From the NCBI RefSeq assembly GCF_964204645.1, contig NC_134027.1, positions 20,236,560-20,300,559 of the forward strand: a DNA stretch of 64,000 nt. Reading direction: 5' to 3'. Origin of the DNA: Tubulanus polymorphus (Eukaryota > Animalia > Nemertea). The notes beneath the pieces were generated by a model. The model did not search any database. It was given only the letters and a program-made list of their open reading frames with translations, and was not told the DNA's origin. A program made the position numbers and the translations under genes. Positions 27,396 to 55,053 of this stretch are shown in pieces. Numbering within the stretch: position 1 is the stretch's first letter; every line of letters starts with the position of its first letter.

Positions 27396-28376
27396 TTATG
27401 TTCTTCCAGAGCGTAACAACAATTTCATTTGTTCTTTGAAGTTCTTACTGTATACATAATAAAATATACCGTTTACAGCTGAATTCAGGGCTTGAGAGAT
27501 ATCATTCAAGAGCAATATCGTCCAAGTCACAGACCAAGGATAATAAAGTCTCAGAATATTGTATAACATATCAGGGGAAACTGACACCATGAATAAAGAG
27601 GATGCGATAAATACCATTCTATGCGCCGTTCCATCTTGTTTATTTTGTTTAGTGTCTGTACTCGTCAGTTGGTTCCTATTTTTAGCGTGAATGTGTAATT
27701 TGATTATCATGATCAAATTCAAAAGTGGCACAAGAGCAAATGGCAAATATGTCGAGAAAATACTTTCTAACAAATACGAGTATTTGTGAGGATTTTGAAC
27801 TGTTTTGGCACCGAGGACAGAGAGGCCGTATGAACATGTCTTTTTCACATGCGCAACAATCCTGTCTTGCGCGCGATATGAAGATACTCCACACCATATC
27901 AGAATACAAACGGCTGAAAATGCATAACAATGTTTCAGATTCCAGTGTCTTTTAGCTTTAAGCGGAAAACAAATGTGAAATGCTCGATCGAACGCTACTA
28001 ATAATGTAAGACTGTTGCGAATGTATGAACCCCATTTTGAGATGATATTTCCCGCAATATAAAGCCCAGGAGCTCCCAAATCTCCGTCTAAATAAAATCC
28101 TGTTTTTCCATAGCGAATAAGTTTCAAAATCCAAACTAAATGGTTATAAATGATTATAGCGATGCAACAGACAATATCAAAAACAGCTAATAACAATAAG
28201 ATGAAATGTGAAGTCGCGGAATTATTCATTTTATGTAGTCGATAAAGTACAATCATAGTAACTGAGTTTGTTATGAGGCCAAACCATCCGATCGGTCCTA
28301 TCACAGTCGCTGCAACAAAATTCCAAACTACGCGATCGTGAGGGAGGCATTTCTTCACAACCGTGGCGTTTAACAT
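27396..28376 (-). CDS. Intronless class A GPCR (peptide-receptor-like / chemoreceptor-like), 326 aa
   Basis: Seven hydrophobic segments; N-terminal NAT sequon; TM1 GLITN, TM2 LAVFD, TM3 FDRAFHICFPLKA, TM5 LPF, TM6 SVSP, TM7 NSAVNGIFY, helix 8 SKNFKEQM. First ATG at 28376. Confidence 0.9.
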   Translation of the reverse strand: MLNATVVKKCLPHDRVVWNFVAATVIGPIGWFGLITNSVTMIVLYRLHKMNNSATSHFILLLLAVFDIVCCIAIIIYNHLVWILKLIRYGKTGFYLDGDLGAPGLYIAGNIISKWGSYIRNSLTLLVAFDRAFHICFPLKAKRHWNLKHCYAFSAVCILIWCGVSSYRAQDRIVAHVKKTCSYGLSVLGAKTVQNPHKYSYLLESIFSTYLPFALVPLLNLIMIIKLHIHAKNRNQLTSTDTKQNKQDGTAHRMVFIASSLFMVSVSPDMLYNILRLYYPWSVTWTILLLNDISQALNSAVNGIFYYVYSKNFKEQMKLLLRSGRT

Positions 28377-28724
28377 ACTGCATACAAAGTGTGTGATGGT
28401 AAAGAAGTATCGGTTGACGCTGCGCACAAGTCGAATCGCATCAGAAGACCACACCTTCGATTCTGGAATATTTTTGCGTAGCAAGAAAATTACATAGTTG
28501 AAACACTGTATCGTTGAATAACATACATTAGACAGCAGTGCTTCCAGTGAGGCAAATTCACAAGTTCATATAACATTATTTGATCGAAGTCACCTGGAAT
28601 ACGAAATATTTTCTTCGTATTTTACAAAATCCGAGGTCATCGCCGAAATGAATCTAATATATTAGATTAATCATTTCGCCGATGACCTTGGACGCACGAA
28701 AAACGAGTAATCATCAAATATGTT

Positions 28725-28795
28725 CATCGAGTGCAACAACAATTTCATCTGTTCTTTGGAGTTTTTACTTAAAACAGTAGAATATACCATGAAAT
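28725..28795 (-). pseudogene. Remnant of the 3' end of a paralog of the 27396-28376 GPCR
   Basis: Translates SKNSKEQMKLLLHS versus SKNFKEQMKLLLRS; DNA AACAACAATTTCATCTGTTCTTTG matches 27415-27438. Confidence 0.65.
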
Positions 28796-29284
28796 ATGTG
28801 TATGACAATGTCAAAATGTGTACAAGTCTGGATTTTTTCCCTTCTTTCACATACATTGTTCTTTATTTTCAAACGATCTCGAAACGTTCCTCGATAGCCA
28901 TATGCAACTGCATACTCGATAAGACGATAACCTTAAACCATCTGGTGTTACTTAACGCCCTGACCATACAGTGATGTTCGTTGATAATCCTATTATCTTA
29001 CTCTTCAAACAAGAGCTTTTCTAGAACTAAAATACATCTATATGAAGTAAATCATGCAAAGTTTATTTCAGTGGTCTGACACCAAAGTTTTCTTGGCTTA
29101 AAAAATTAAAAATAAATTCTCACACGCTCGAATTTATTTTTATTTTTCACTCACTCAACCTTTCAACCTCTGATATGAAACAACACTTACCCTATTACTC
29201 TAATAATATTCATATATATGAACATTATATAAATGAATATCATATTAATGAAATCAATTTTAATTAAAAAAATATGTATAATAA

Positions 29285-29626
29285 ATGGAAAGTAAACAAA
29301 CACACGGTGAATTCTTAGATAGAATCAAAGATACTACAAATGTCAAATCTGTAGATTATAGATTCAAAAAGTTAACAGAATTAACATTACATAAGAAATA
29401 TTTAATTACAAATATTGAAACAATTACTAATAGATATGGTAATAAATCAGTTATTCACTTAGAATATGAAGGATTAAAAGGAAATGAATATAAATTTAGA
29501 ACATATTTACCAGATAGATTTCATAGATTATCTAGTGACGATAAAGAAAAAGTGTGTTCTGGTGATTTCTATTTCATATGTAAAGGTAAGAATGAAAAAG
29601 GATGTCATGATATAGATTTCGAATAA
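29285..29626 (+). CDS. Small viral protein, 113 aa, possibly OB-fold/ssDNA-binding
   Basis: Intact ORF starting at TAAATG. Beta-strand-like pattern FKKLTELTLHKKYLITNIETITNRYG...FRTYLPDRF resembles small proteins I recall from invertebrate Polintons. Function is inference. Confidence 0.6.
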   Translation: MESKQTHGEFLDRIKDTTNVKSVDYRFKKLTELTLHKKYLITNIETITNRYGNKSVIHLEYEGLKGNEYKFRTYLPDRFHRLSSDDKEKVCSGDFYFICKGKNEKGCHDIDFE

Positions 29627-29643
29627 AAAAATACATAAAATAA

Positions 29644-30080
29644 ATGCAAGATAAATTAAAAGAATATAGTATATTTGTTGATTCAAGAAGACTTACATAT
29701 TATATATCTCATAATTTATTGATACAACTAGATAGAGAATTTAGAAGTTGTGTTGATTTAAAATTAGTAGATATTAGCTTATGTAACTCATTTTACAATA
29801 TATCGAATAAAACTATTGAACATGGAGCCTTTTTAATTTTTAATAAAAATGAAAATGAATGGTTCTATACAAATTTAAAACTAAGGTTATATAATTTAGA
29901 AACATTATCACAAGAAATTAATAGAAAAGCCTGGCACAAATTAGGTAGTCATTCCGGGTTTAACCATTAGATTATTAAAAGTGATAGTTCTGATAAAATA
30001 AAGATAAGGTTATCCCATAGTGAAAAACATATAAATTTATCTTAAAAAAACCTATAGCTAAACTGTTAGGAATTCCACCA
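29644..30080 (+). pseudogene. Minor capsid (penton)-like protein, truncated
   Basis: LKLVDISLCNSFYNIS...LYNLETLSQEIN and, after a frameshift, PIAKLLGI: the YNIS / Y..L...IN / LLG pattern typical of Polinton/PLV single jelly-roll pentons. C-terminal half missing. Confidence 0.5.
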
Positions 30081-30098
30081 AATTTTTTTAATAAATAA

Positions 30099-30330
30099 AT
30101 GAGTGATAATAAGTAGATAATAACTGGTTTATATAATGGAGCATTACTATCAGTGGGAACGGTTGGTTATACAATGTTATTGAAGAAAGTATTCAAAATG
30201 GGAAATATTAATGTTGATAGATTTGATATCAATGATATTCTAAAATTAACATTAGCAGTAACTTTATCTTATTTAACAATTGATTATTTGGAAAAACAAA
30301 AATATTCCTCCTATGAACGCATAATTTTTG
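30099..30330 (+). pseudogene. Small two-helix hydrophobic viral protein
   Basis: TAAATG start; MSDNK*IITGLYNGALLSVGTVGYTMLLKKVF...ILKLTLAVTLSYLTIDYLEKQK; one in-frame stop. Confidence 0.55.
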
Positions 30331-30338
30331 TTAAATAA

Positions 30339-30682
30339 ATGGCTTCTGCATAACTATTATAGGATCGGCAATTGTTAACGATTTAGCATTTACAGGTGGT
30401 GGTTATTTATTTAAGCATATTGATAAAATGGTTCATTATCAGACAAAATTATATGGATTATATAAACAAAGAATTATACAATCAGAAAATTTCACATAGA
30501 GATTTTCAATCAGTCGATGATGCTATGAGTTTATATAACGCAGTAACAAATAAAGAAAAATTACATCTATATAAACCTACAATATCAGATAATTATTCCC
30601 CAAGTAATGAACAACAAAAATATGAAATAATTTGGATTTAACTGTTATTGTTATATTTGTAGCATATAAATTTACAAATTAA
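30339..30682 (+). pseudogene. Small viral membrane protein
   Basis: TAAATG start; IIGSAIVNDLAFTGGGYLF...DYINKELYNQKISHRDFQSVDDAMSLY...PTISDNYSPSNEQQKYEII followed by a hydrophobic tail; frameshifted. Confidence 0.55.
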
Positions 30683-30708
30683 TTATATATTATTTTTTTG
30701 TTAAATAA

Positions 30709-31129
30709 ATGGATGATAAAGTTGATAATATTGATATTATTCCTCAGGATATAAATAAAACTAAATTAAAATTATATCTAGAAAAACAAATATTAGAATT
30801 TGAAAATGACTTAAAGATAAAAAAGAAAATATATTGAAAATCTAGAACTATATATTATTTATTATAAGTGGTTCAGTTACAATTAGTTCTGTAATAACAT
30901 TTTTAGCAATATTCAGTCCATAAACACCTTTAGCTATATCAATTGGCGTGCTAGGTTTAATTTCAAGTGTTTTAACTGGTATAAGCTCAAAATTGAATAT
31001 AAAAAGTAATAAAGAAAAATAAAATCTAATATAAAAGAAATTAATAAATTAAAAAATAGATTAGATTATATAATTAGTTTGAATGGAAATATTACAACTG
31101 AAGAACAAGATAAATTATTAAAAGAATGA
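30709..31129 (+). pseudogene. Viral coiled-coil / two-TM protein
   Basis: TAAATG start; charged helix, then ISGSVTISSVITFLAIFSP*TPLAISIGVLGLISSVLTGIS, then a charged helix ending GNITTEEQDKLLKE. Confidence 0.55.
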
Positions 31130-31157
31130 ATAAATTATTAATTTTTTTATTATATAA

Positions 31158-32492
31158 ATGGTAGATAGTTTTCCAAAAGCTTTCCAATATAATAGATTAA
31201 TTAAATATAACATTCCAGCAATAGATTTTAATAAAAATATTTACATACAAAAATAAAGTTTTAAATTCATTAATTAATTTAGATATTTATGTTTCTGAAA
31301 CTAATAATTTCAATGTAAAGATGGAAAATATTTTTCATGTATACTTAATTATTTTTAAAAAATTGAAAGATGAAAAACGATGGTTATTAAAATCTAATAT
31401 GAAGTAATGAAGTATTGGCAGAACCAATTACATTATGCAGTTTATTGTGCAACAACAGGATGTGGAATTAGTTGGAATGATCATTTAAATAAATCAAAAT
31501 ATTATAAATCCAAAGTTTATTTAGATTTCATACATACTTTCAAATAAGATTAATATTAAATAAATTAGAGTGTCTAGATATTTTAAAGAATTAGATAACA
31601 ATATTAATTTGTCAAGGTTTTATAAAGTTTGTAATGAATATAATATAAATATGAATAATTCTGATTTTCGAACAAAAATTGGAACAATAAGATCACTTCC
31701 TTGTCCTGAAAATATTTTACAATATTGCACACTTTTCATACCATCTAATAGTTTTTATTATATCTATAATAATAAATTAGGTTATGGTAAAATAGAAAAT
31801 ATGGATTTAAAAACATTAAATTCCAATAAATTACCGAAATTTTATGACAATTTAAAACAAGAAAACAATAATGGTTGGGTTTATTTCATTTTAGAAAATA
31901 GTGAAGGTTTTACAAAATCAGGTATACAAAGAATAAATCAATCTATAAGAATATAGTTGATTTGTATATTAGGATCATAGGTTGAAACAAGATCCCCAAT
32001 AATTGGAAATTTAAATACATCATTTGATACACAAAAACAATTCACAGTATTATTTGAAGATTATATTCATAATGATAAAAACAGATCGATTCCAGAAATC
32101 ATTGTAAGATATCAAAATTATTTAGATAAATCTCATGTAAGATTAAATTATTGTATAGGTCCTAATTTATTAATTATTTCTGATGATTTAATATTAAAAA
32201 TGGGAAATATAATTGGTTATAATAATTTGATTAAAACTGCAACAATAAATAATTCATTTGGATTAAATGATATATATATATATAAAAATTATGACTGCTC
32301 CAAAACTAATGGAAGGTGAAAACATTTAAAAAAATATTCAATCAACTGAAACTAAAACAAAGAATATTAAATCGAAAAATGATTTTAGAATAAATATTAC
32401 AATACATCAGAAAATATAAAAACTGAAAATACTAAATTAGCTATAACTTGTATAGGTATGATAAAGGAGGAATATTATATTTCAAATTTTGA
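31158..32492 (+). pseudogene. Conserved viral protein of unknown function (W.NQL..A.YCATTGCG family) with C-terminal hydrophobic tail
   Basis: TAAATG start; YWQNQLHYAVYCATTGCGISW, SEGFTKSGIQRINQSI, CILGS*VETRSPIIG, IIGYNNLI. I recall these motifs from uncharacterised proteins of invertebrate endogenous DNA-virus elements; not verified by search. Confidence 0.55.
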
Positions 32493-32508
32493 TTTTTATA
32501 AGATATAA

Positions 32509-34250
32509 ATGGATGTAGAAGGTGGATAAGATATTCCAATGGATACTTTTGATGAACCCGCTATTACCGATGAACAACAACCTGATTTTAATTAAACTAA
32601 TACTGATAATGATAATGAAACAGCATATAATTCTAATCTAAATAATGATGATGGATATGATGATGATTTTAGTGGATATAGTGATTATGAAGAATATAAA
32701 GATGATATTGAAACAAATGAAAAATTAATAGATAATTTTAAAGCTCCCGATAGGAAAGTAATTAAAACTAAAAAAGAAAGAAAACATTTAATTAATAGAT
32801 TTAAAAAAACAGATAATCCTATATTGAAAAAATATTTATTAATCATAAAACATAGTGTAACAAATACAGTTATTGATGAAATATTACCAAAAGATGTAAC
32901 ATATAACATTGAACCAGACGATATTTCAGAACAAATTAGAAAAGGTGATCAATTTTTCATGTCTAATTTATAGTTTAAAAATGATTCATAGTTTATAACC
33001 TTGAATTAAATGATAAACTTGTATGAATAAAATTATCTAAAATGGGGCAAGAAGATCTGTTCCATCCTGGAATGTTAGCAAGATCTTCAATTGAAAAATC
33101 AAAAGGTGGTTCAAAATTTATCAGAATTATATGGAATGCACTCGAAAGAGTAAATGAAGAAGAACCAATTGAGAATATTTATATTAACAAATATTCACCA
33201 TTTAAAAATCCAAATTCAAATCCTTTTAATGTTGATCCAGAAATGAAAGAGTATGGAGATCGATTAGATAAATTATGAACTTCAACACCAGAAACATCGA
33301 GAAGAGACACTCAACCAATTAGTAATGATTCAAGTCAATTAGAAGTAGTATTAGAAAAAACAAATTGAAAGACCAAATAATTCAGAAGAACAGATAAATG
33401 GTACTTTAGATACATCTGATACTGTAACCGGAACAAATCAAATGCAACTTGAATTGGAAGGATTTCTTGATTTAACTGAAGAAGAATTAAAAATATTTCC
33501 TGAACAAACACGATGAGAAATTAAAGGTGTGCAAAAATCAGCTGATTAAATTGCGCACGATAAAAGTATAAGAGATTTTAAGATTAAAACTTTAAAAAAA
33601 AGAATTATCTGAATCAAATGAAGAATTAAACATTTAAAATCTCATTTAGATCATCAATTAATTGATTAAATTGAATATAGACAAAAAGAATTATGTTTAG
33701 AAAAAGAAATTGATGATTTAAAATATAATTTAGAATTACAGAAAGAAGAAAAAAAAACTATTATTAAAATCATATATGATTATTGTATTAATAGATTAAA
33801 AGTTATTATTAAAGATTTAATGATAAAACCAAATTCTAAAGTATCATTGAAAGAATGAATAAAATTATTATCTAAATTAGAATGTATCACAATTCTTTCA
33901 ATTCTAACAGCTGTAACTAATGATATTTACAACAATAGGTTTAGCTATATCAAATTCATTAAAAGCTACACCAAATCCTAATAAACCAGATAAACCACCA
34001 AATGATAATAATCTATACAAGATAAAGTTAAGGATGGTTTAAAAGAATTAGCAAAATATCTATGGGAACTATCTAAAGAATCTGCCGCAGCTTGACCTGG
34101 ATTTATAGCATCAATTGTTGGTTTTGTTTTAAAATCTGCTGGAAATATTATTAGTTTTGCCGCAGAACATATAATTTTATTTCTAATAACAGCTGTTAGT
34201 GCTACTATTTTGGACTAGTAAACATGATAAAAGATAAACAAGTAATAATT
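32509..34250 (+). pseudogene. Large viral protein: acidic N-terminus, coiled coil, hydrophobic C-terminal helices
   Basis: TAAATG start; MDVEGG*DIPMDTFDE...; C-terminus ITILSILTAV...KVKDGLKELAKYLWELSKESAAA*PGFIASIVGFVLKSAGNIISFAAEHIILFLI; multiple lesions. Confidence 0.55.
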
Positions 34251-34265
34251 ATTTTTCTTAAATAA

Positions 34266-35474
34266 ATGGGTGGGAGTTATATAAATCCTTCTAAGAATTG
34301 TAGAATATCTAATGCAATTTAAGCAGAGAGATCTCATCATATGATTACTCATAATCCTTCTAATATTAATCCCGATGAAACTTTATATGTTAGAATTCCT
34401 CGATTAACATAAAATACTTTTTATGTTTTAAATAGTATTTATTTATCAGCTGATATAAAAGTAACTGGTAATAATCATAATTATGTCGTAGATAATGTTG
34501 GAAGATATTTAATTAGAAAATTAATTATAAAGATTGGACCAGAAACAGTTTTTTTCATTAGATGATTATAATTTATTTACGCATTGTAATGATTTATGGT
34601 TAACAAAAGAAAATAGAAATAATATGATATTTCAAGGCATCCAATCAGAAAAACAAAATAAATTAAGACCAGAAGCTAATAATTGATTAAAACGATTTAT
34701 GGAAGCAAATATAAAATTCCATTAGACTTCGAATTGATAAATAGTAATGCGCCTTTATATAAATATGCTATTCAAGAAGATATTATATTCGAAATAACAA
34801 TTGCTCCTGTTAATGAAATTGTATTATATAGCGTTGATAAAGATATGGATTATAAATTATCAAATAAATGTTTAGAATATGACACAGTAACTAATGAAAA
34901 TATTGCTAACACAATTCAAACTAAATACAATCAAGGATTTTCATTATTCTATGATTATATTGATAAATTTAAAACTGTAACGATTAATGCAAATGATGAA
35001 ATAATTGATGAGAATATTAACTTCCCAAGAAGATCTATTAAAGGTATATTAATACTTTTTACCATTGCAACATATTCTAATGGTGCAATTAAAGTTGATA
35101 ATTATTATAATCCTGAAATATCAAAAGTAGAAATAAATAACTATCGAAGGAATAGCAAATAAAATATTTTGTCAGGGAATGAGAATGATTGATCAATGGG
35201 TTAAATTAAAAAATATTTTATGAATGGAAAAATAAAATCATCTGAAGATTGTAATATTAATCAAATTGATTACAATACCGGCAATAAATATACAGTATGG
35301 TTAGATTTTAGGACGAAAGAGGATAAATTATACATGGTTCTGGGAAAAAAATTGCAAAATACAAAAGATGAAATACAATTATTTATGAAAAAGAAAAAAG
35401 GAGGTTTAAATTATAAAATGCATATTTATATCATATCTGACGCGCAATTAAATATTATATTATTAGTTTTCTAA
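34266..35474 (+). pseudogene. Major capsid protein (double jelly-roll-like) of the Polinton-like element
   Basis: TAAATG start; ITHNPSNINPDETLYVRIP, VVDNVGRYLIRKLIIKIG, DLWLTKENRNNMIFQGI, YGSKYKIPLDFELI, YKLSNKCLEYDTV, NINFPRRSIKGILILF, VWLDFRT. About 400 codons, beta-rich; motif order as in PLV-type capsids. Confidence 0.7.
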
Positions 35475-35842
35475 CACAATTAATCGTGTTAAATGTTTTA
35501 TCAATTAATTTATTTGAAACGAATATAATTTCAGACTGTTGATATTCTGAATGTATTATGTAATGTAGTCTTTTATTTTGTAATTAGATGATACAATTAT
35601 TTCTATTTATTATACAAATATCTTATTAAATTTGTGTTTATTTTTTGTTTTTATTCATATTTAGTTCATTAGGAATGAATTCATTAAATCTTATTTTCAG
35701 TCCTGCTAGTTGATTCAACAAAATATAATCATCGAATCTTATTTTCAGTCTTACTCCTTACTACATTCAAAATTAATTATTTAAATCTTATTTTAGGTCC
35801 TATAATCTAATGCACTAAAATTGAATTTATCAAATCTTATTT

Positions 35843-36156
35843 TTATTCAAATCTATAATATGATATCCGTTTTTATCTTTACCTAAGTATGTTGAATAAA
35901 ACTCACCTGAACATAAATCTTCAACATCTTTTAATAATTTATTGAAGCTATTTAGTAAATAAGTTTAAATTTCTATTTAGTAAATAAGTTTAATTTTCTT
36001 CTTTAAACCATCAAACATATTTTTGATAAATATATATGTTAGTTCATTTGATTTCTTATACTTATTTTCTGTAATTCTAGCAGCAGTTGTATCGTTTATT
36101 CTCTGAAGAAAGCTATTTTGGTTATGCGATTGTTTGTTGTCTTTATTTCCTACCAT
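35843..36156 (-). pseudogene. Diverged inverted paralog of the 29285-29626 gene
   Basis: TAAATG start on minus strand; KQSHNQNSFLQRINDTT...YKKSNELT...DGLK...LCSGEFYSTYLGKDKNGYHIID aligns with KQTHGEFLDRIKDTT...FKKLTELT...EGLK...VCSGDFYFICKGKNEKGCHDID. Confidence 0.7.
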
Positions 36157-37289
36157 TTAATTACTAAATCTTTGTTAAATTCAAAATTATTCTACATACA
36201 CAAATTACAATTATACGTATTAGTAAAGGTGGGCTTTCATATCAGAGGTTGAAGTCGGGAAAAATAAAAACATCAAAATAGTGAAATATATAGCTATGTT
36301 ATCATTTGTTTATCGAGAAAAAAATCATATTTTTCTATAGATGAATCAATAGCAGAAATTATGAATTATTTAACCATTTGAATATTTTGATACCTTTGGT
36401 ATAAAAACCCACACCATTAACCTGCTCATTTGACCGGTGGCGAATAAAATGATAAATTTCTCGAGATTTCGGGGAATTTTTTCAAAAGTCCTGCCACTTT
36501 TCAGTGTTCGGGCATCTCAACGATTGTAAGACAGCTCTACTGCATGCCAGTAGTGCAGTTAGAGCAGCCACCTTGGACTAGCCCGTTATCTAGCGGACAA
36601 TTAAGTCAGTAACTCAGTCACGCCTGAGGTGACATTGCCCACATTTCTAGGTTTTCATCGTCACTCCCACGTGACCAGGCCAAGGTTTTAAGCTCAATGA
36701 ATCACCAAGACAACGCCAAGATTTTTTTGCTTGCTTAATATGGTGAAAAACCTAATCATTGAGATTTGAAGTTAATTCTCAAATTAATTTTTCCTTACTG
36801 ACGCAAGAAGCATAAACTCAGTTTCAAAACCTGCAACCATTCTTTATTAAGAACAGGATCATGACTGATCACTTTGTATAGTTGATCGGCATCAGCGTAC
36901 ATCAGCTTTACGAGTCTGTATATTTCATTCCCCCGAAATTGAGATTGATAGAAACTCCTGACGAAATAGATATTCATTTGATAATTGCGGATTTTATTTA
37001 TATCATTCGCAAGTGTTGTTTATAATAGAATGATCAAAATGAAAATGGATATTTCGAGGACGATTTCATTCAAATCAAGTAAATAGTCGAGGATTCCAAA
37101 ATCTAGCATTAGATTCATAACTGCATCGTTTGATAAAGTTATTTTTCATTACTCGAGAGAACCTCTGCATTTTCCTTAAATTGAACCGGAGTTCGTATAT
37201 CAATTACTGCGTCATTATGTTTCTGGCATACGTGCGTTTTAACTTAGATCGAAATCTTTCGAATTGGAATATTTTTTGGTGGTAGAATT

Positions 37290-40174: not shown

Positions 40175-41423
40175 CTGAAATGATAGAAATTATTACTGTG
40201 ATGATACATACACGCGCTAACCAACTTCATTGATATACCTGGATATATTTAAGCGGGTGCAGCGAGTGTTGCGTTATATTCAATATTGTATAAACTATTG
40301 ATGGTAGCTTTATTAGAGAAAATGCAACGAGAAGGCTGATAGATTTGATTTCAAAGGTTATCAGGCAATTTTCAATTTAATACAAAGGCAATTTTATTTT
40401 TTGTTCTGTTTGTAAATATTCTTATGGCATGCTTTCTTATGAAATTGAAAAAAATGAAAGGCTTGTCCGAAACTTTAGAGCCGTTGACTGTGTTCTAATC
40501 TGGTTTCTCATAATGTCAAAAACCAATAACGCGAATTGTTTGTTACGGTGTTTATCGTTTATTCTCCCTTACATTTTCTATCACAACTTGAACTTAGCTC
40601 ACAATCAGGGGCATATTTGTTTAGAGTCAACCGATTAGGTTCAGTCGGATTCGCTCAAACCGGTAGGCCTACACGTTTTGTCAAACGAGGAGCGGTTTGC
40701 TAGGATCTTGAGCACTCTCCTGACTGGTTATTCCAAGATCAAGCGACTGAACCAGGATTGCTGTGTCAGACGTTATCATCAGCAGCCCTATCAACTTAGT
40801 GCATTCGTTTACATCACATAAATCGTTCTCAGCCTCTAATATAGTGGCTTACTCTTAGTAAAGGCAAATATAAACAACTGTGAAACTGGATCTGTGTGTA
40901 TCTTAGAGGGGTATTAACATGTTATACATAGAGGTCATGGTATGATATTAGCTTTCATAAACAAATTGAAGTTTAGTGTTCGTATGTATTTTTTCAGTTA
41001 TGGACTCACGATATGGCATTAGCAATTTTGACAATTGTCATGTTGAAGAAGCTGCACAAGATGAAGAGGAGATGAAAAACGAAGTCTATTATTTGATCAA
41101 AGTTTCATCTATTTTTGATATCTTACGGTAGTGTTTTCATTATGTAATCTCCGGTACTCGAAAAACGCCTAATGAAATACACCGAATCGGAAAACGCATA
41201 ACGCCTAATTCCTAGAAAATGACCTAATTTCGTAATTGCACCATCTACTGAGACTCACAATCCAACTCATCAACGGAACAGTTTGAAAATACATGTGTTT
41301 TACGCTTCACGAAACAAGACTAGTACTCTTATAAACTTCATTATAGGATGATGATAGAATGTCCGCAGTGCAAGCGATTAATTACATAACGCCATAGAAG
41401 TGTAAACTGAAGCAGTTTACACT

Positions 41424-42348
41424 TTTAGCAAGGAGTATTTTTATCTGGAACTGCGGATTGTGTTTTTATGCTTAAATATTGTAATCAATATTTTGCCAGG
41501 TCATTTGTAGCTAAGAAAACATATTTGTAGATTTTTCCTATGTCCATTAATGGATCTAACCCTTAGTCTTTGTCACTTTTACCCGGTTACCGTCTTGTTT
41601 ATTGAGTATTTTGTCTACCTAGCGAACTGGCACTATTTTCGAATAAGTGATGTAATAGCAATATAAACAACTCTCAACTCACCTGCCCTCGCAACTAGTT
41701 TAGCTCTCATCAGGTAATTAGTGTCTTAATATGTCATTAAGATTTGGATGAACCAATCGCTAGAAGTTTTGGTCACTAATTTCTTGATGGGAGTGTCTGA
41801 ATCAACTTGGTTTTTGGCAGCACAGATTTGATCACTCTGTGCCTGCTATCCAACTGATTAAGACGTAAAATAAACTGGTATTAACACATAAATTCAATCG
41901 TTTGAATTTTCAGGTGAGTTACATCCATTTTTCATAGTTAAATCTTATATATGTTTTGGCATAAATGTGTACCTAGGCTTGGCTGAGAAATCAGACCTTT
42001 ATGTAACACGTACATTTGGTACTGAGAGTCAATTTTTATAGATTAGGTATTTAATCTAAAATGACGGCTAATGATTATTTGTTTGTAGAAATAGGCCTTT
42101 GTATTAAGTATGTAGTTAAAGAAAAGTCATTGTAGGACAATCTCAGTTACGATCTGATGAAGTATGAGTAATCAAGTAGTATAATATTCGATTCTATTCT
42201 GTGTATACTGTAACTAATTATCATAACACTCTGTGCCTGCTATCCAACTGATTAAGACGTAAAATAAACTGGTATTAACACATAAATTCAATCGTTTGAA
42301 TTTTCAGTTTTTGTAAAATTGGCAACGCGCAAAAAGTCCGTTGCTAAA
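41424..42348 (+). repeat. LTR 1 (925 bp)
   Basis: TTTAGCAA...TTGCTAAA; repeated at 48742 and 56060; followed by the PBS. Confidence 0.92.
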
Positions 42349-42349
42349 A

Positions 42350-42359
42350 TGGTGGAGAA
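42350..42359 (+). promoter_or_regulatory. Primer binding site, tRNA-Ala-like (also at 49668-49677)
   Basis: TGGTGGAGAA begins 1 nt after the LTR end and is complementary to the ...UUCUCCACCA 3' end found in eukaryotic tRNA-Ala. Confidence 0.65.
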
Positions 42360-42411
42360 CCCGTTGCTAAAATGGTGAGAACCCTTTAACGATTTCCGAA
42401 ACCTCTCGCAA

Positions 42412-43548
42412 ATGAATCCTCGCTCGGTAGCACAAAACAACGGCAGGATAACAAGATCGACGACTTCGAGGAACGATCCTCTCTGGAATTTGGCTGTACC
42501 GAGCTCTCCGGTACGTCTGCAGCCCGTCGATATACGTGTGCACAGCACGGACAATCAGGAAGCGCACGCGTTAGTACGGGGCGAACAAAGCAATATGCCG
42601 AAAGTTAGTTTGGATTATTTTGGCGTCGGGTATGGTACCAATGTACCAGCCTGGTTGGATCGTTTCGACCAATATCTCAGGCTGAACAACGTACCAGCGG
42701 AGAAACACGTCGATGTGTTTTTGTATCATTTAGGGCACCATGCGGCCAATATCAAGAACAGCCTTCCGGTGGCCGACCAACTTGATATCAATAAGTTAAA
42801 GACGGCACTGAAAGAGCGCTTTCAGCCGTTGGAGGACCAGTTGCTTACGACCAATATTATGCAAGCGCAAAACGAGTCGGTGAACGATTATCTTAACCGT
42901 ATCGATATTCTCGCGTCACAATCGTCACTGACCCCGCAACAAATCGTTTCGCGGGCAATACAAGGGTTACAGCCACGAATTGCGGCGACTGTAGCTGGCC
43001 ATTTGCCCGATAGCATGCCGAAACTGCGAAAAATCGCCCTGACCGTCGAAAACTCAAGCAATTTCGTGCCGTTATCTACACCTGTTGTAGCCGCTGCTTC
43101 AACTTCAACGGATGCTGCTGTGGAGAAATTGCAGGCTCTTACAACCGTCATCGCCGAGCAGTTTCAACAGAATTTGAAAGACACCTCTGCTATGTTATCG
43201 AACCGATTTGATGATGCGATGGAAACCCTCAGATCGGAGGTATGCGCCATTGATACTCGACACATACGTCACCAAGACCGTCCGTCGTTCGACCGCGAAC
43301 AATACCGCCCACGACATTGGGCTCCTGACCACCGTCGCCAACCAAGATTTAGTCGCGGGAGAGGCCAACCAAGAGGCAGTTACAGAAATTCGTCACAGAC
43401 CCAGAACCGAAATTTCGGTTCAAGTAAGTGTATAAGGTGTTTTAAGCCAGATTGTGAATCAGAAGATTCTTGTTATGCCAAATCATTAGAATGTCGTAAC
43501 TGCCATAGAATAGGTCATGTCGTGCGTGCATGCCCCGATAGAAGATAG
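42412..43548 (+). CDS. gag: Gag, copy 1
   Basis: 378 aa; capsid-like region with Q...ESVNDY motif; CCHC knuckle CRNCHRIGHVVRAC. Confidence 0.92.
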   Translation: MNPRSVAQNNGRITRSTTSRNDPLWNLAVPSSPVRLQPVDIRVHSTDNQEAHALVRGEQSNMPKVSLDYFGVGYGTNVPAWLDRFDQYLRLNNVPAEKHVDVFLYHLGHHAANIKNSLPVADQLDINKLKTALKERFQPLEDQLLTTNIMQAQNESVNDYLNRIDILASQSSLTPQQIVSRAIQGLQPRIAATVAGHLPDSMPKLRKIALTVENSSNFVPLSTPVVAAASTSTDAAVEKLQALTTVIAEQFQQNLKDTSAMLSNRFDDAMETLRSEVCAIDTRHIRHQDRPSFDREQYRPRHWAPDHRRQPRFSRGRGQPRGSYRNSSQTQNRNFGSSKCIRCFKPDCESEDSCYAKSLECRNCHRIGHVVRACPDRR

Positions 43549-46500
43549 GGGTGCGCGCCTGTCCCGGTTCAAAGTACTCAGGACGGGCACCCACAGGTTC
43601 AACTTAAGGCTACCTTGGAACGCAATTTGACTACCATTTTTATAGGTGGTCATCGTGTCAAAGGTTTGCTAGATACCGGAGCACACATTTCGTGTATATC
43701 CAAACAATGCCTAAATAGGACTAAGTTTGCACATAGTAGGTTACATAAGTCCGATATCAAAGAAGTTGTCGGTGTGGGTGGGCATCTGATTCCTGTCTTA
43801 GGGACCATAGAACTGCCCTTGACTTTTCCCGATGTCGCTACTCCGGTCATACATACTTTTCATGTCTTTGAGAAACTCCATCAACAGCTAATTCTGGGCA
43901 TCGACTTTATGGATCAGAAAAAGGTCGATATTTTCTATTCTGATCAATGTTTTACTATGAAGGAATGTGCTCCTCAAAAACCATTACTTCTGGAAGTTCA
44001 CTCGGTTATAGCTAGGTCATCTGTTAAAACGAAATTACCCCCCAGGTCAGAATTAAATATTCCCGTTAGGATTCCTAAACGCGTAGGTAACGAGCTCGTT
44101 CTACTATCACCTCTAGATGAGCTTGCTTTCAAGAATTTTTCCGGCGCAAAATGCCTGGTTCACATTCGAAATGGTAACGCTACAATGCGGCTCATAAACC
44201 CAACCAATAAATCCATCTCCATCAGGAATAACCAACCTCTCGCCTCTGTCTCTGAACTGGATAATTCAGTACCGATTTCGTCACTTGATGAAAAAGACTC
44301 CGACCCATCTCCGGTCAATTATAACTCGGTCAACAACATGAGCTTACCCTCTGAATATACACACGACACGGCAGATACGTTGAAATTTCATACAAAAGCG
44401 CCGCCCCCTCCGCAGGAGAAGATTGAGTTTGATTTATCTCAGTCAGACATTTCTGAAGAGCAAAAGCAGGTCTTACAAAATTTCTTACATCAGAACAGGG
44501 ACAGGTTCTCCACTAACTTACATGAACTAGGATTCTCGAATATTCAACAACATCGAATTGATACAGGTGATCACCCGCCTGTGAATTCTCGCCCGTACCG
44601 CCAAAACGCCACCGTGCGAAATGAACAGAATAGACAAATCGGCGAAATGCTTAAAACTGACATTATCACTCCATCTAACTCTCCATTCCAATCCCCGGTA
44701 GTCATGGTCAAGAAGAAAAATGGGGAATACCGATTTGCTGTCGACTATCGCTAGTTAAATGAAATAACGAAGCCCATGGCTTACCCATTGCCCAGAATCG
44801 CAGATGTGATTGACTCTGTGGGAGAATCTCAGGCAAAGCTTTTTACCACGCTTGACTTAAAAAGTGGCTTCTGGCAGATCAAACTAGATCCTACTACAGC
44901 CCATAAGACAACTTTTGTAACACAGAATGGGGCGTATATGTTCAAACGCCTCCCGTTTGGTTTGAAAAACTCACCCATGACATTTCAGATGACTATGAAC
45001 GAAGTTCTTAGGGGCTTTCATTGGAAATTTGCTCTTGTATACATTGACGACATTCTCATTTATAGCAGCTCATTTGAAGAACACTTGGAACATTTACAAC
45101 TTATTTTTGATAGATTGAGAGAAGTCAAGCTAACCCTGCAACCTGAGAAGTGTAAGTTTGCAGTCAGCTCAGCCACTTATCTAGGTTTCATCTTCACCAA
45201 AGAGGGAGTGAAGGCTGATCCAAGCAAATGTGAGGCCATAAATTCTTTCCCTGAACCTAAGTGTCGAAAGGACCTCCGGGCTTTCTTAGGTTTATGCAAT
45301 TTCTATCGGCGTTTTGTTAAGGATTTCTCTCATGTATCTACAAAATTGACTCCTCTTTTGAAAAAGGATGCCAAATTTATCTGGACTGACGAACATCGAC
45401 AAGCCTTTAACCAATTAAAATCCAATCTGATATCACCCCCTATCCTGGTCTATCCTGATAATAACCGTCATTATTTCTTGTCAACCGATGCGTCAGACAC
45501 TGCTGTAGGTTATATATTGGGTCAGTTCGATGAAGAAGGCCGAGAGAGGGTCATCGCCTATGGGGGTCGCTCTCTGTCTACTCCCCAAAGAAATTGGCCT
45601 ACCCGAGACAAAGAGGGTCTAGCCATTGTTCTCGGTATAGATTCGTATCGTGAATATCTATCGGACAGGGAGTTTACCATTTTCACCGATCATATGTCCT
45701 TGACCCAACTTCTTAAGGCTAAGGATACATCACAACGTGTTACCAGGTGGGCGACAAAGTTACAAGCTTATCAATTCACCATTGTCCATCGACCGGGTAA
45801 GCAGAATTCCAATGCCGATGGGGTGTCCCGACGAGATTACCCTCCCATTGAAGATGACAGCGATCATGACGATTTTCCCGCCCCACTTGGGGCCATTCTA
45901 CCGTCAACTCGGTCAGACGTTTCAGTCTCTGCTAGTCGCATAGGTGAAGGCCTATCCAGCCACCCTAATGTTACTCCGAATGTTACTCCAAATGATGATT
46001 CGATAAGAACCTGGTTGGAGACGGAACTAATGTATGAACAGGATTTACCCCCTGCAGTTTCGTCCCTTCAAGATGTAGATTTCCGGTCAAAACAATGCAG
46101 CTCTCCAACTTATGGACCCATGATTGCTTTCCTTGAGAATGGTACCTTACCCTCAGATCCAAAACTGGCTAAATGGATAACAGCTGCAGAACACCTATTT
46201 CATATGTATGACGGTATTTTGTATCGTGATTTTCGAAGCAAAAAGGAAAAGTTGGCCAGTGTCGTCGCTCAAATCGTCGTCCCGGAAGACCTTCAGTTGC
46301 ATATCTTGGTAGCTTATCATGATTGTTGTGCTGGGGGTGGCCACGCAGGTATCCAAAAAACATATGACGCTATCAAAACCAAATATTTTTGGCGAAATAT
46401 GTATCGGGATGTGGTCCAATATGTGCAGTCTTGCGTGTCTTGTCAGCAATCAAAGGTTAATCCACACGCAAAACCCCCTCATCTGACAAATCTGCCCATT

Positions 46501-47735
46501 GAGGACACATTCGGGCGTTGGCATATCGACTTCCTGGGGCCACTTCCTGAGGGAAAAAATGGCGAGAAACATATTTTGCTCGTAGCTGATAGCTTTTCGC
46601 GCTGGCCCGAAGCATTTGCATTAAAATCACAAGAGGCATCAGAAGTGGCAAAGGTTTTATATAATGAAATTTTTGCCCGATACGGTGCTCCGAGGTCACT
46701 TGTTTCAGATCGTGGAAAATGTTTTCTCGCTAAACTAGTTTTATCTATCTGCGAAATGTTTCAAGTTAAAAGATATCACACATCTGCTTACCACCCCAAA
46801 CAAATGCATCCTGTGAGCGCACTAATAGGTCAATTGCTCAGATTTTTCGTTCCTATATAAGCGAGGACCAGACTGAATGGCCCGATATACTATCTAGTGT
46901 TCTCATGGCTCTACGTGCTTCCCCATCGTCTCACACGACTGGCTTTTCTCCATTTCATGTCTTATTCGGAACGGATATGTCACTACCTATTGACACTACT
47001 CTAATTCCGAAAGAGAATTTGGCTAAAACTGTGCAGGAACACATTGCACGCAAGCAAAGGCATTTGAAAGTAGTCAAAGAAATCGCTACTCAGCAAACTG
47101 AAAAGCACCAGTTACGCAACAAAGAACTCCATGATAAGCATGCCTCGACACCAGATTACCAAGTCGGTCAAAAAGTTTGGTTGTTGCGTAAGCACACTAA
47201 GAAAGGAAAGTCTAAGAAATTCATGCCCAAATTTACAGGCCCATATAAAATTATAGCGTTAGGTAAAAATTTTACCTACTTTCTCAGATGTTGTCGAACA
47301 AACAAAGACCTGCCTTCAGCGGTGAATGCTTCCCGCCTCAGTACTTTTGTAGACCGGGCTGATTACCCGCATCTACTACCTCAGCTCGAGAATGAGAGTA
47401 CACATGACGACTCGGTAACGGATTCTCAAGTCATGCACCCTCAAAGATCAGTTACACCTGACATTCAGGACAATGAAACAGACACAGCATTTGATGCTAC
47501 AAGACAGTCCCTGCAAGAGCCGACCACTGATAAGACTTTCTTTCCAATTGATAAGATTTTAAAGATGCGTACTAGATCTGGCATTATAGAATTCTACGTA
47601 AAATGGTCCAGTAAATCTCCAAATTCTTGGCAACCCTCTGATAATCTTACCCAGGCGGCCAAGGACGAGTTCTTCCGTACCCACACGAGACAGGGTAAAA
47701 CGCGAAAACGAAGGTCCTGTTTCAAGAGATCATAA
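43549..47735 (+). pseudogene. pol: Pol (PR-RT-RNaseH-IN-chromodomain-like), copy 1, with a premature stop and a frameshift
   Basis: LLDTGA; FAVDYR*LN (TAG 44752-44754); LDLKSGFWQ; YIDD; TDASD; HHCC; DFLGP...SDRG; 1-bp frameshift near 46798 in the expected YHPxTNASCER; GPY/F motif KFTGPYKI. Confidence 0.92.
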
Positions 47736-48730
47736 CTCGATTTTGCTGTTTCACCTGTGATTGGAGTATTTTTTTTTTTTAGGAGTTTGGCACGAAAGAG
47801 ACAACTAATATGTGCTATGAGTTGTGCGCACAACTCTCCTTTCGCGTCTCTTGCTTGAAATAGCAGGTGTCATACTCCTAGGTTGAATTTCTTTTTATTA
47901 GGTGGAACAAATTTTCGAATACTGGAATTTGTTGAAGGATTTTTCGTGATTAGTCTCTTCCCTCGGCGAGCTCTGACTTATCTCGTGCGGGATGTTTCTC
48001 TCGTGTCCGCCTGGATCGGGTGCAACTTACGCGGTCCGTTAGTTGCCACCCCACACCGGTCAACTTGAATCGTCGTGACAGGTTATCTTGAATTTTGTGC
48101 AATGCGTCTTCAAAGAGAATGAATCTGTGGTTGTCTAAATTTTGTTGGGTTATTGATTAATTATATTCCGTCAAGGGTTACCTTCAGTTAAAATACTACA
48201 TGTCAAGTTTTCGAGTATAATATGGATCTGGCGTACTATTTACCCATGTCATGGAACTTGTATTACTTTCATGGTACAGATCATGGTACATAGTTATATT
48301 ATGAAAGAAAGAAAAAATGTATATCCTATGTTTTATAGTATTTTTTAATGCGCCGATGTTGCAGCTAAATGGTGGCGGTGATTTTTCTGTATCTGTGAAT
48401 TTTTTTTTTTACTATATCTATGATTTGATGAGTATTTCATATTTTTATATGATAAGGATTATTAATGTTACTACACCTGGATTCGGGTTAATTTTTCTAA
48501 TATAACAATATCGATGAGTCACTGTCTATTGTTAGGTGATTATGTTGATTGTTGCTGATGTTTTGCCATGTATTTACCCTTTTAGTATTATAAGAATTAT
48601 GCAATGGAATAGGAATGTAAGTTTTTAGAGATATATTGCAGGACTTATGTTGAATGAGATGACTTTATATTTTTACCTCCCTAGGCTTGTGTGTTAATTT
48701 TCTGCTTTTGTGGACAAAAGCTTGAATATA

Positions 48731-48741
48731 GTGTGGGAGAG
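48731..48741 (+). promoter_or_regulatory. Polypurine tract (also at 56049-56059)
   Basis: GTGTGGGAGAG directly abuts the downstream LTR. Confidence 0.65.
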
Positions 48742-49666
48742 TTTAGCAAGGAGTATTTTTATCTGGAACTGCGGATTGTGTTTTTATGCTTAAATATTGT
48801 AATCAATATTTTGCCAGGTCATTTGTAGCTAAGAAAACATATTTGTAGATTTTTCCTATGTCCATTAATGGATCTAACCCTTAGTCTTTGTCACTTTTAC
48901 CCGGTTACCGTCTTGTTTATTGAGTATTTTGTCTACCTAGCGAACTGGCACTATTTTCGAATAAGTGATGTAATAGCAATATAAACAACTCTCAACTCAC
49001 CTGCCCTCGCAACTAGTTTAGCTCTCATCAGGTAATTAGTGTCTTAATATGTCATTAAGATTTGGATGAACCAATCGCTAGAAGTTTTGGTCACTAATTT
49101 CTTGATGGGAGTGTCTGAATCAACTTGGTTTTTGGCAGCACAGATTTGATCACTCTGTGCCTGCTATCCAACTGATTAAGACGTAAAATAAACTGGTATT
49201 AACACATAAATTCAATCGTTTGAATTTTCAGGTGAGTTACATCCATTTTTCATAGTTAAATCTTATATATGTTTTGGCATAAATGTGTACCTAGGCTTGG
49301 CTGAGAAATCAGACCTTTATGTAACACGTACATTTGGTACTGAGAGTCAATTTTTATAGATTAGGTATTTAATCTAAAATGACGGCTAATGATTATTTGT
49401 TTGTAGAAATAGGCCTTTGTATTAAGTATGTAGTTAAAGAAAAGTCATTGTAGGACAATCTCAGTTACGATCTGATGAAGTATGAGTAATCAAGTAGTAT
49501 AATATTCGATTCTATTCTGTGTATACTGTAACTAATTATCATAACACTCTGTGCCTGCTATCCAACTGATTAAGACGTAAAATAAACTGGTATTAACACA
49601 TAAATTCAATCGTTTGAATTTTCAGTTTTTGTAAAATTGGCAACGCGCAAAAAGTCCGTTGCTAAA
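48742..49666 (+). repeat. LTR 2 (shared central LTR)
   Basis: Same sequence as LTR 1; preceded by the PPT and followed by the PBS. Confidence 0.92.
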
Positions 49667-49729
49667 ATGGTGGAGAACCCGTTGCTAAAATGGTGAGAAC
49701 CCTTTAACGATTTCCGAAACCTCTCGCAA

Positions 49730-50866
49730 ATGAATCCTCGCTCGGTAGCACAAAACAACGGCAGGATAACAAGATCGACGACTTCGAGGAACGATCCTCT
49801 CTGGAATTTGGCTGTACCGAGCTCTCCGGTACGTCTGCAGCCCGTCGATATACGTGTGCACAGCACGGACAATCAGGAAGCGCACGCGTTAGTACGGGGC
49901 GAACAAAGCAATATGCCGAAAGTTAGTTTGGATTATTTTGGCGTCGGGTATGGTACCAATGTACCAGCCTGGTTGGATCGTTTCGACCAATATCTCAGGC
50001 TGAACAACGTACCAGCGGAGAAACACGTCGATGTGTTTTTGTATCATTTAGGGCACCATGCGGCCAATATCAAGAACAGCCTTCCGGTGGCCGACCAACT
50101 TGATATCAATAAGTTAAAGACGGCACTGAAAGAGCGCTTTCAGCCGTTGGAGGACCAGTTGCTTACGACCAATATTATGCAAGCGCAAAACGAGTCGGTG
50201 AACGATTATCTTAACCGTATCGATATTCTCGCGTCACAATCGTCACTGACCCCGCAACAAATCGTTTCGCGGGCAATACAAGGGTTACAGCCACGAATTG
50301 CGGCGACTGTAGCTGGCCATTTGCCCGATAGCATGCCGAAACTGCGAAAAATCGCCCTGACCGTCGAAAACTCAAGCAATTTCGTGCCGTTATCTACACC
50401 TGTTGTAGCCGCTGCTTCAACTTCAACGGATGCTGCTGTGGAGAAATTGCAGGCTCTTACAACCGTCATCGCCGAGCAGTTTCAACAGAATTTGAAAGAC
50501 ACCTCTGCTATGTTATCGAACCGATTTGATGATGCGATGGAAACCCTCAGATCGGAGGTATGCGCCATTGATACTCGACACATACGTCACCAAGACCGTC
50601 CGTCGTTCGACCGCGAACAATACCGCCCACGACATTGGGCTCCTGACCACCGTCGCCAACCAAGATTTAGTCGCGGGAGAGGCCAACCAAGAGGCAGTTA
50701 CAGAAATTCGTCACAGACCCAGAACCGAAATTTCGGTTCAAGTAAGTGTATAAGGTGTTTTAAGCCAGATTGTGAATCAGAAGATTCTTGTTATGCCAAA
50801 TCATTAGAATGTCGTAACTGCCATAGAATAGGTCATGTCGTGCGTGCATGCCCCGATAGAAGATAG
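49730..50866 (+). CDS. gag: Gag, copy 2
   Basis: Translation identical to 42412-43548. Confidence 0.92.
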   Translation: MNPRSVAQNNGRITRSTTSRNDPLWNLAVPSSPVRLQPVDIRVHSTDNQEAHALVRGEQSNMPKVSLDYFGVGYGTNVPAWLDRFDQYLRLNNVPAEKHVDVFLYHLGHHAANIKNSLPVADQLDINKLKTALKERFQPLEDQLLTTNIMQAQNESVNDYLNRIDILASQSSLTPQQIVSRAIQGLQPRIAATVAGHLPDSMPKLRKIALTVENSSNFVPLSTPVVAAASTSTDAAVEKLQALTTVIAEQFQQNLKDTSAMLSNRFDDAMETLRSEVCAIDTRHIRHQDRPSFDREQYRPRHWAPDHRRQPRFSRGRGQPRGSYRNSSQTQNRNFGSSKCIRCFKPDCESEDSCYAKSLECRNCHRIGHVVRACPDRR

Positions 50867-53800: not shown

Positions 53801-55053
53801 CTGACAAATCTGCCCATTGAGGACACATTCGGGCGTTGGCATATCGACTTCCTGGGGCCACTTCCTGAGGGAAAAAATGGCGAGAAACATATTTTGCTCG
53901 TAGCTGATAGCTTTTCGCGCTGGCCCGAAGCATTTGCATTAAAATCACAAGAGGCATCAGAAGTGGCAAAGGTTTTATATAATGAAATTTTTGCCCGATA
54001 CGGTGCTCCGAGGTCACTTGTTTCAGATCGTGGAAAATGTTTTCTCGCTAAACTAGTTTTATCTATCTGCGAAATGTTTCAAGTTAAAAGATATCACACA
54101 TCTGCTTACCACCCCAAACAAATGCATCCTGTGAGCGCACTAATAGGTCAATTGCTCAGATTTTTCGTTCCTATATAAGCGAGGACCAGACTGAATGGCC
54201 CGATATACTATCTAGTGTTCTCATGGCTCTACGTGCTTCCCCATCGTCTCACACGACTGGCTTTTCTCCATTTCATGTCTTATTCGGAACGGATATGTCA
54301 CTACCTATTGACACTACTCTAATTCCGAAAGAGAATTTGGCTAAAACTGTGCAGGAACACATTGCACGCAAGCAAAGGCATTTGAAAGTAGTCAAAGAAA
54401 TCGCTACTCAGCAAACTGAAAAGCACCAGTTACGCAACAAAGAACTCCATGATAAGCATGCCTCGACACCAGATTACCAAGTCGGTCAAAAAGTTTGGTT
54501 GTTGCGTAAGCACACTAAGAAAGGAAAGTCTAAGAAATTCATGCCCAAATTTACAGGCCCATATAAAATTATAGCGTTAGGTAAAAATTTTACCTACTTT
54601 CTCAGATGTTGTCGAACAAACAAAGACCTGCCTTCAGCGGTGAATGCTTCCCGCCTCAGTACTTTTGTAGACCGGGCTGATTACCCGCATCTACTACCTC
54701 AGCTCGAGAATGAGAGTACACATGACGACTCGGTAACGGATTCTCAAGTCATGCACCCTCAAAGATCAGTTACACCTGACATTCAGGACAATGAAACAGA
54801 CACAGCATTTGATGCTACAAGACAGTCCCTGCAAGAGCCGACCACTGATAAGACTTTCTTTCCAATTGATAAGATTTTAAAGATGCGTACTAGATCTGGC
54901 ATTATAGAATTCTACGTAAAATGGTCCAGTAAATCTCCAAATTCTTGGCAACCCTCTGATAATCTTACCCAGGCGGCCAAGGACGAGTTCTTCCGTACCC
55001 ACACGAGACAGGGTAAAACGCGAAAACGAAGGTCCTGTTTCAAGAGATCATAA
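50867..55053 (+). pseudogene. pol: Pol, copy 2, with the same stop and frameshift
   Basis: ORF fragments identical to copy 1 (TAG 52070-52072; frameshift near 54116). Confidence 0.92.

Follow-up and report, generated by a model that had tools for sequence, protein, structure and literature searches.

A TAAATG start motif in a decayed Polinton-like virus of the ribbon worm Tubulanus polymorphus and in its intact relatives

The virophages Sputnik and mavirus have helper-type promoters. Here we describe a start motif in a small virus that is integrated in an animal genome. The DNA analysed, called the window, is a stretch of 64,000 nucleotides from the ribbon worm Tubulanus polymorphus (GCF_964204645.1, NC_134027.1, forward-strand positions 20,236,560 to 20,300,559), and positions below are counted from its first letter. 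The window contains an element (29080-36400) which is a decayed, non-autonomous, integrated Polinton-like virus (PLV) of a double-jelly-roll capsid family. All nine gene starts of the element have the hexamer TAAATG, the motif is conserved in intact relatives and rare in a sister clade, and the clade with the motif avoids TTTTTNT on the coding strand. Matching small viruses to their helpers by promoter is established (PMC11502894, PMC11788076). Similar to virophages and to PLVs of the Gezel-14T type, the element would be a small virus carrying the promoter motif of a large helper (PMC11502894). The viruses described there belong to protists and mostly have Imitervirales-type motifs, whereas the present host is an animal and the motif is of the pox type. 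The borrowing of a helper promoter by a small virus is thus already known; the TAAATG signature in PLVs appears to be new. No report of the motif in PLVs was found in the literature covered, outside which lie most subscription journals and bioRxiv supplements.

In animals, the entomopoxvirus-associated PLVs AHEV_PLV1/2, CBEV_PLV1 and Ca_PLV1 have been reported from moths and a beetle (Barth et al. 2024, PMC11296320). As in the present case, they are small integrative PLVs and proposed hyperparasites of poxviruses in an animal. Their hosts, however, are insects and not a marine spiralian, and according to the same paper they encode an adenovirus-type protease, which was not seen in the present loci. 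Their capsids, of lineages 1 and 2 (~370 amino acids, aa), look different from ours in a comparison by eye, and the four conserved motifs of the capsid family of the window have 0 matches in the supplement of that paper. Its main text contains neither 'promoter' nor 'TAAAT'. The family also resembles animal Polintons/Mavericks (adintoviruses) in the double-jelly-roll capsid, the A32 ATPase, the rve and chromodomain integrase, the PolB (seen in the sister-clade locus L018) and the terminal inverted repeats. Unlike these elements, the window copy is without ATPase, integrase and PolB, and the relatives have a deoxynucleoside kinase and no protease that was seen in their loci, all of which are partial.

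TAAATG at the gene starts

The sequence-only reading had proposed that the nine viral genes of the element all start at TAAATG, and named the comparison of starts with internal ATGs as a check. All nine ATGs (29285, 29644, 30099, 30339, 30709, 31158, 32509 and 34266 on the forward strand, and 36156 on the reverse strand) are directly preceded by TAA, compared with 14 of the 261 other ATGs of the element (Fisher p 4e-11). These results bear out the proposal. A T at position -12, which is absent from the sequence-only reading, is found in 9/9 starts and in 2/7 of the other forward-strand TAAATG. The upstream context T-tract-TTAAATAAATG, which had been described for several starts, is present at 30339, 30709 and 34266, and loosely at 30099. 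The starts may originally have been chosen by the motif, and in seven of the nine genes the reading frame is interrupted within 59 codons. Therefore, they were checked by homology. According to tblastn with intact relatives, the match begins at query residue 1 for the starts at 29644, 30709 and 31158. For other starts, it begins at residue 2 (at position 30105), residue 3 (at 34269), residue 6 (at 30350) and residue 13 (at 29312). The open reading frame (ORF) starting at 36156 is a paralogue of that starting at 29285, with the N-termini in register (E 4e-7). The weakest start is 32509, where 8/10 N-terminal residues match one relative (E 0.008).

Conservation in homologous elements, another check named in the sequence-only reading, was analysed in 28 sampled loci, the longest of which is 11.5 kb. 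The starts of 5'-complete, non-nested ORFs were counted when the family was present in at least two loci or the ORF had at least 110 aa. Four antisense shadow families were excluded, and the start was defined as the first ATG after the in-frame stop. This rule slightly favours TAA-ATG, and the sister clade serves as the control. In the 15 close loci, TAAATG is present at 57/66 starts (54/63 after three near-duplicate loci are removed) and at 84/2206 other ATGs; in L024 and L025, it is present at 7/7 starts and at 5/262 other ATGs. In the intact relatives combined, 64 of the 73 starts have the motif. In the close loci, TAAAT lies within 8 nt of the ATG at 61/66 starts; of the nine starts without TAAATG, four still have TAAAT a short distance before the ATG.

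The enrichment goes beyond AT richness, as the earlier reading had held. The element has a GC content of 22.8%, compared with ~36% in its surroundings. In loci of GC 0.30-0.44, the motif is present at 32/35 starts, and it is also kept at GC 0.38-0.44. In contrast, the distant sister clade (9 loci, GC 0.32) is equally AT-rich and has TAAATG at only 2/29 starts, with AAA-ATG at 19. Trees of the capsid and of the ATPase (quick version) separate the distant clade from the other loci with full support, and place L015 and L025 at an open node. The sister clade (L017-L019, L021-L023, L026-L028, L117) has a different motif fused to the start, T(A)3-8-ATG, at 16/29 starts and 21/1133 other ATGs. A T-rich block is located 7-9 nt further up, and the head-to-head spacing is as short as 15 nt. 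Capsid-based scans of viral contigs found no relative. The same kind of scan of genome contigs found one locus, L117, which is of the sister type and has TAAATG at 0/4 starts.

A two-part signal and the avoidance of TTTTTNT

The profile of the starts is A-rich from -18 to -16 and T-rich from -14 to -10, with T at -12, followed by A, TAA and ATG. In the intact relatives, T at -12 is present in 61/64 TAAATG starts and in 30/89 non-start TAAATG. G is found at +4 in 45/66 starts and T at -3 in 88% of the starts. TAAAT inside genes is not depleted (270 vs 259). The T at -12 and TAAATG together are likely to form a compact two-part signal that worked as a poxvirus-type late promoter, as judged from the comparison of the start profile with the published vaccinia consensus. 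Vaccinia late promoters have TAAAT(G) and, upstream of it, a conserved T that lies among further Ts (PMC11980589), and the initiator tolerates TAAAT(G/A) (PMC5294985). The putative promoter resembles them in having TAAAT over the start codon, tolerance of TAAATA, an AT-rich core, and a T-rich block ~10 nt upstream with one fixed T. Unlike in vaccinia, the motif here marks almost every gene of a small virus, for which no polymerase was found.

In poxviruses, late mRNAs carry 5' poly(A) leaders and TTTTTNT is an early-gene signal (PMC11423596). TTTTTNT on the coding strand was compared with synonymous-codon shuffles as a pre-chosen second test; 13 motifs were explored. In the TAAATG clade, 10 TTTTTNT were observed and 36.6 were expected. 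To remove the effect of long T runs, the exact-five form (a run of exactly five T, a non-T and T) was counted, and 8 were observed compared with 22.3 expected, with 0/200 shuffles as low. The exact-five mirror motif (20 vs 24.6) and the antisense strand (92 vs 84.5) show no depletion. The exact-five form is also not depleted in other PLV clades (19 vs 18.2).

AATAAA was considered as the poly(A) signal of the upstream gene and rejected, as AAATAA is located before only 17/64 starts. Moreover, where genes start head to head, neither is preceded by a gene on its own strand.

The element and its neighbourhood

The features are listed in Table 1. According to tblastn, the eight forward-strand genes of the window are collinear with the intact metagenome contig L001, except for one 126-aa gene of L001, which has no counterpart in the window. 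Of the nine genes, only two remain open for more than 100 codons (113 and 108 aa), and the other seven stop after 4-59 codons. No Pfam family was found above the cut-off among 17 pieces of the element. The capsid gene has 57 homologues, and the larger family has 276 representatives at E up to 1e-30. The predicted structure of the closest intact homologue, P0001 (predicted local distance difference test score, pLDDT, 85) is a double jelly roll, and matches the capsids of iridovirus, PBCV-1, mavirus and Sputnik. The clusters of 30 capsid homologues did not name any animal host. In the P0009 cluster and in L117, capsid genes of the family are found on short contigs labelled as Bartonella and Saprospiraceae, probably through contamination.

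Table 1. Features of the element and the adjacent host gene
Feature	Position	Strand	Description	Basis
Host gene	27396..28376	-	7TM (seven-transmembrane) receptor, single ORF, outside the element; sole match a nemertean FMRFamide-receptor-like protein, 53%	
Inverted repeat, left arm	29162..29198	+	Terminal, imperfect; 19-nt exact core 29162-29180	
Start motif 1	29273..29287	+	T at -12 ... TAAATG	Start inspection
ORF1	29285..29626	+	113 aa, unbroken; homologue of L001 125-469; no Pfam family	tblastn
Start motif 2	29632..29646	+		Start inspection
ORF2	29644..29970	+	108 aa; aligns to first 99/254 residues of L001 565-1329	tblastn
Start motif 3	30087..30101	+	T-tract ... TAAATG	Start inspection
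ORF3	30099..30305	+	Broken; small hydrophobic protein family, 75-78 aa in relatives	tblastn
Start motif 4	30327..30341	+		Start inspection
ORF4	30339..30676	+	Broken; family of 139-144 aa in relatives	tblastn
Start motif 5	30697..30711	+		Start inspection
ORF5	30709..31138	+	Broken; homologue of 144-aa L001 protein	tblastn
Start motif 6	31146..31160	+		Start inspection
ORF6	31158..32490	+	Broken; 410-442 aa family	tblastn
Start motif 7	32497..32511	+		Start inspection
ORF7	32509..34221	+	Broken; family with acidic N-terminus and hydrophobic C-terminus, 356-485 aa where complete	
Start motif 8	34254..34268	+		Start inspection
Major capsid protein gene	34266..35474	+	Broken; 61% identity to intact P0001	
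ORF9	35977..36156	-	59 codons to first stop; ORF1 paralogue just inside right repeat	
Start motif 9	36154..36168	-		Start inspection
Inverted repeat, right arm	36217..36253	-	Terminal; exact core 36235-36253	

L001 has extra genes for an rve and chromodomain integrase, an A32 ATPase (PF04665) and a deoxynucleoside kinase. A protein-primed PolB is present in L018, and a PolB-related fragment in L006 and L024. Of the three genes that together mark a Maverick/Polinton proper (protein-primed PolB, rve integrase and adenain protease), the partial loci show rve in L001 and PolB in L018, and no protease was seen. The window copy has no match to the A32 ATPase of the relatives, and their integrase, deoxynucleoside kinase and PolB are missing from it as well. 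The core of the inverted repeat gives 2 matches in the window and 0 in 100 shuffles, and single-depth contigs extend from the host flank into both ends of the element (one study, possibly the source of the window itself). The missing genes, the broken genes, the inverted repeat and the host-flank contigs together indicate that the element is a decayed, non-autonomous, integrated PLV. No target-site duplication was identified at its ends. In three runs of one study, again possibly the source of the window, related sequence reaches a very high depth. In run X1, its summed depth, which is not a copy number, is ~2,000-150,000 over 28920-35831 and ~45 on the flanks.

Some further observations were made. 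The paralogues ORF1 and ORF9 lie in inverted orientation, one just inside each terminal repeat, and are perhaps the remnant of a longer repeat. The right-hand part of the element is far less deep in the sequencing runs than the rest. The deoxynucleoside kinase (PF01712) occurs in members of the TAAATG clade (L001 10340-10981, L007 2895-3377); it has no close named relative, and neither its four unnamed matches in one search nor the mixed taxa in another point to a helper. A diverged partial duplicate of the 7TM receptor gene is located at ~28720-28790, ~1320 bp away. To the right, two tandem, apparently identical 7318-bp chromodomain Ty3/Gypsy copies with three repeat blocks occupy 41152-57327. 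The pair is flanked by a 51-nt inverted repeat, and either arose very recently or was duplicated in the assembly. Another Ty3/Gypsy element, whose pol ORF has 1141 aa, follows at 58083-63420.

The polymerase that reads the genes

The genes were probably transcribed by the RNA polymerase of a large cytoplasmic DNA virus that co-infected the cell. The sequence-only reading had drawn the same conclusion with a pox-like helper. The conserved motif, the fixed T and the TTTTTNT avoidance speak for the former part, whereas a poxvirus helper is not established by the present results. A pox-like helper is nevertheless the likeliest kind. In our estimation the chance that the helper polymerase was pox-like lies somewhat below even, and a polymerase of another kind, neither pox-like nor Pimascovirales-like, takes a small share. 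No RNA polymerase was found among the 15 scanned ORFs of L001. By analogy with vaccinia, the post-replicative polymerase of the helper would initiate within the AAA of TAAAT and slip there, adding a non-templated 5' poly(A) leader. With this leader, A would stand in place of the T at -3, which under the Kozak rule is unfavourable for translation. No 5' untranslated region would then be needed, and leaderless intergenic promoters of 20-30 nt would be workable. The element may have been a virophage-like hyperparasite, which sheltered in the animal genome by its own integrase (present in relatives and not in this copy) and was woken by infection with the helper. Mavirus is integrated and woken by infection.

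Several points weigh against this explanation. The fixed T is at -12 (61/64), not at -13 as in the tabulated vaccinia consensus (PMC11423596 Table 1), and -13 is T in 46/64 of the starts of the relatives. The vaccinia spacing was taken from two secondary papers, which agree. Although L015 and L020 are placed in the same capsid clade (30 rows, node unresolved), TAAATG is present at 0/6 of their starts. As the loci are related, the p-values overstate their independence. TTTTTNT is early-specific in poxviruses, so that a strict late model predicts no avoidance of it, and it was rejected as a systematic terminator (gene ends 12/65 sense vs 16/65 antisense, no enrichment). The exact-five form is mildly depleted in Imitervirales (34 vs 45.5), and sense runs of at least six T are depleted in motif-free clades as well (12 vs 22.3).

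Other giant viruses also count on this side. Two scans of viral contigs with a TAAATG-promoter pattern gave 88 and 83 stretches; the pattern-matched starts were removed from the counts, and giant-virus loci were assigned by the Aylward 2021 supplement (PMC8575486). Among ~30 scanned loci with ORFs listed, no poxvirus was recognized and no helper was found. In PM_01 of the Pimascovirales (L036, L078, L060, L076, L037, L108, L080), TAAATG is present at 34/90 unselected starts and 136/3677 other ATGs, and in one Algavirales locus at 4/11 starts. Thus, TAAATG by itself does not identify the helper as a poxvirus. In Imitervirales (7/61) and Pokkesviricetes incertae sedis (4/26), TAAATG starts are not above background. 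Of 150 loci with at least four unselected ORFs, 28 have at least 30% TAAATG starts and none has at least 70%. The compact, small-virus-like contig L194, with TAAATG at 3/9 unselected starts and TAAAATG at two more, is possibly another satellite that relies on this signal.

The best-surviving alternative, which we regard as rather unlikely, is a host RNA polymerase II core promoter. It would be a compact, nearly leaderless initiator acting in the nucleus, with no need of a helper. The family is integrated, its relatives carry the rve and chromodomain integrase, and related sequence is very abundant in host DNA runs by summed depth, which is not a copy number. The motif of the sister clade is also fused to the start, so the whole family may share one host mechanism with small variations. 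Against this, a TATA box at the usual distance was rejected (TATAWA starting 21-40 nt upstream in 2/35 starts of the GC-richer loci), and so was a trans-splice acceptor (AG directly before ATG in 0/72). The prevailing T at -3 is a poor context for scanning, and the strand- and orientation-specific deficit of TTTTTNT is left unexplained.

A Pimascovirales helper (irido/marseille-related, PM_01-like) acting by the same mechanism is one form of the large-virus explanation, and an unlikely one. PM_01 is aquatic and uncharacterized (PMC8575486). Its starts resemble those of the relatives in the frequent ATAAATG, with A at -4 in 88% and T(A)2-6 before ATG in 52/90. Another locus, with TAAATG at 4/9 starts, has an iridovirus-like capsid. 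However, TAAATG is present at ~38% of the starts of PM_01 compared with ~88% in the relatives, T at -12 accompanies it in 15/34 (p 2e-8 against the relatives), and the exact-five TTTTTNT is not avoided (41 vs 42.4). A single search for literature on Pimascovirales promoter motifs gave no report of TAAATG starts in PM_01.

It is improbable that the polymerase was encoded by the family of the element itself or by a cytoplasmic plasmid-like element, as in yeast virus-like elements. The yeast elements make 5' poly(A) leaders with their own polymerase (PMC6831550, PMC6211774), and no complete genome of the family is among the loci. No polymerase family, however, was found among 26 scanned ORFs of relatives or among the listed ORF families.

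Still less probable is a signal at the level of translation, in which the in-frame stop before the ATG results from gene packing or termination-reinitiation. TAA is itself a stop codon, genes end in it most often (TAA 45, TAG 7 and TGA 7 of 59), and one gene pair in L001 abuts. Nevertheless, the stop of the upstream gene accounts for only 1/64 motifs. In six loci and the near-duplicate L013, the motif is also present at both starts of head-to-head gene pairs that are separated by only 19-37 nt. TAG and TGA are nearly excluded before the ATG (TAA 57, TGA 1, TAG 0, i.e. 1/58, compared with 14/59 of terminal stops; p 5e-4), and T at -12 is left unexplained. These results refute simple TAA-ATG packing, which the sequence-only reading had offered as its alternative. 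Chance, i.e. AT richness with starts picked by the motif, is already refuted: the 77% AT element does contain 23 TAAATG on both strands, but the starts are confirmed by homology, and the motif is kept at GC 0.38-0.44 and rare in the equally AT-rich sister clade.

A wider picture can be put forward tentatively, and we give it somewhat less than an even chance. A widespread, undescribed PLV clade of aquatic invertebrates may hyperparasitize an undiscovered pox-like lineage, and its cis-signals (the T at -12 with TAAATG, and the avoidance of TTTTTNT) may be a fossil record of helper transcription in the genome of the ribbon worm. The T(A)n-ATG of the sister clade may then reflect either a change of helper or a shift to transcription by the host. 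A single literature search gave no specific report of pox-like viruses in marine spiralians; the pox reading, if true, predicts such a virus there. Animal PLVs may be autonomous nuclear viruses or parasites of larger viruses. The clade-wide, two-signal signature of the poxvirus type gives a direct test between the two, with the motif-poor sister clade as a built-in control.

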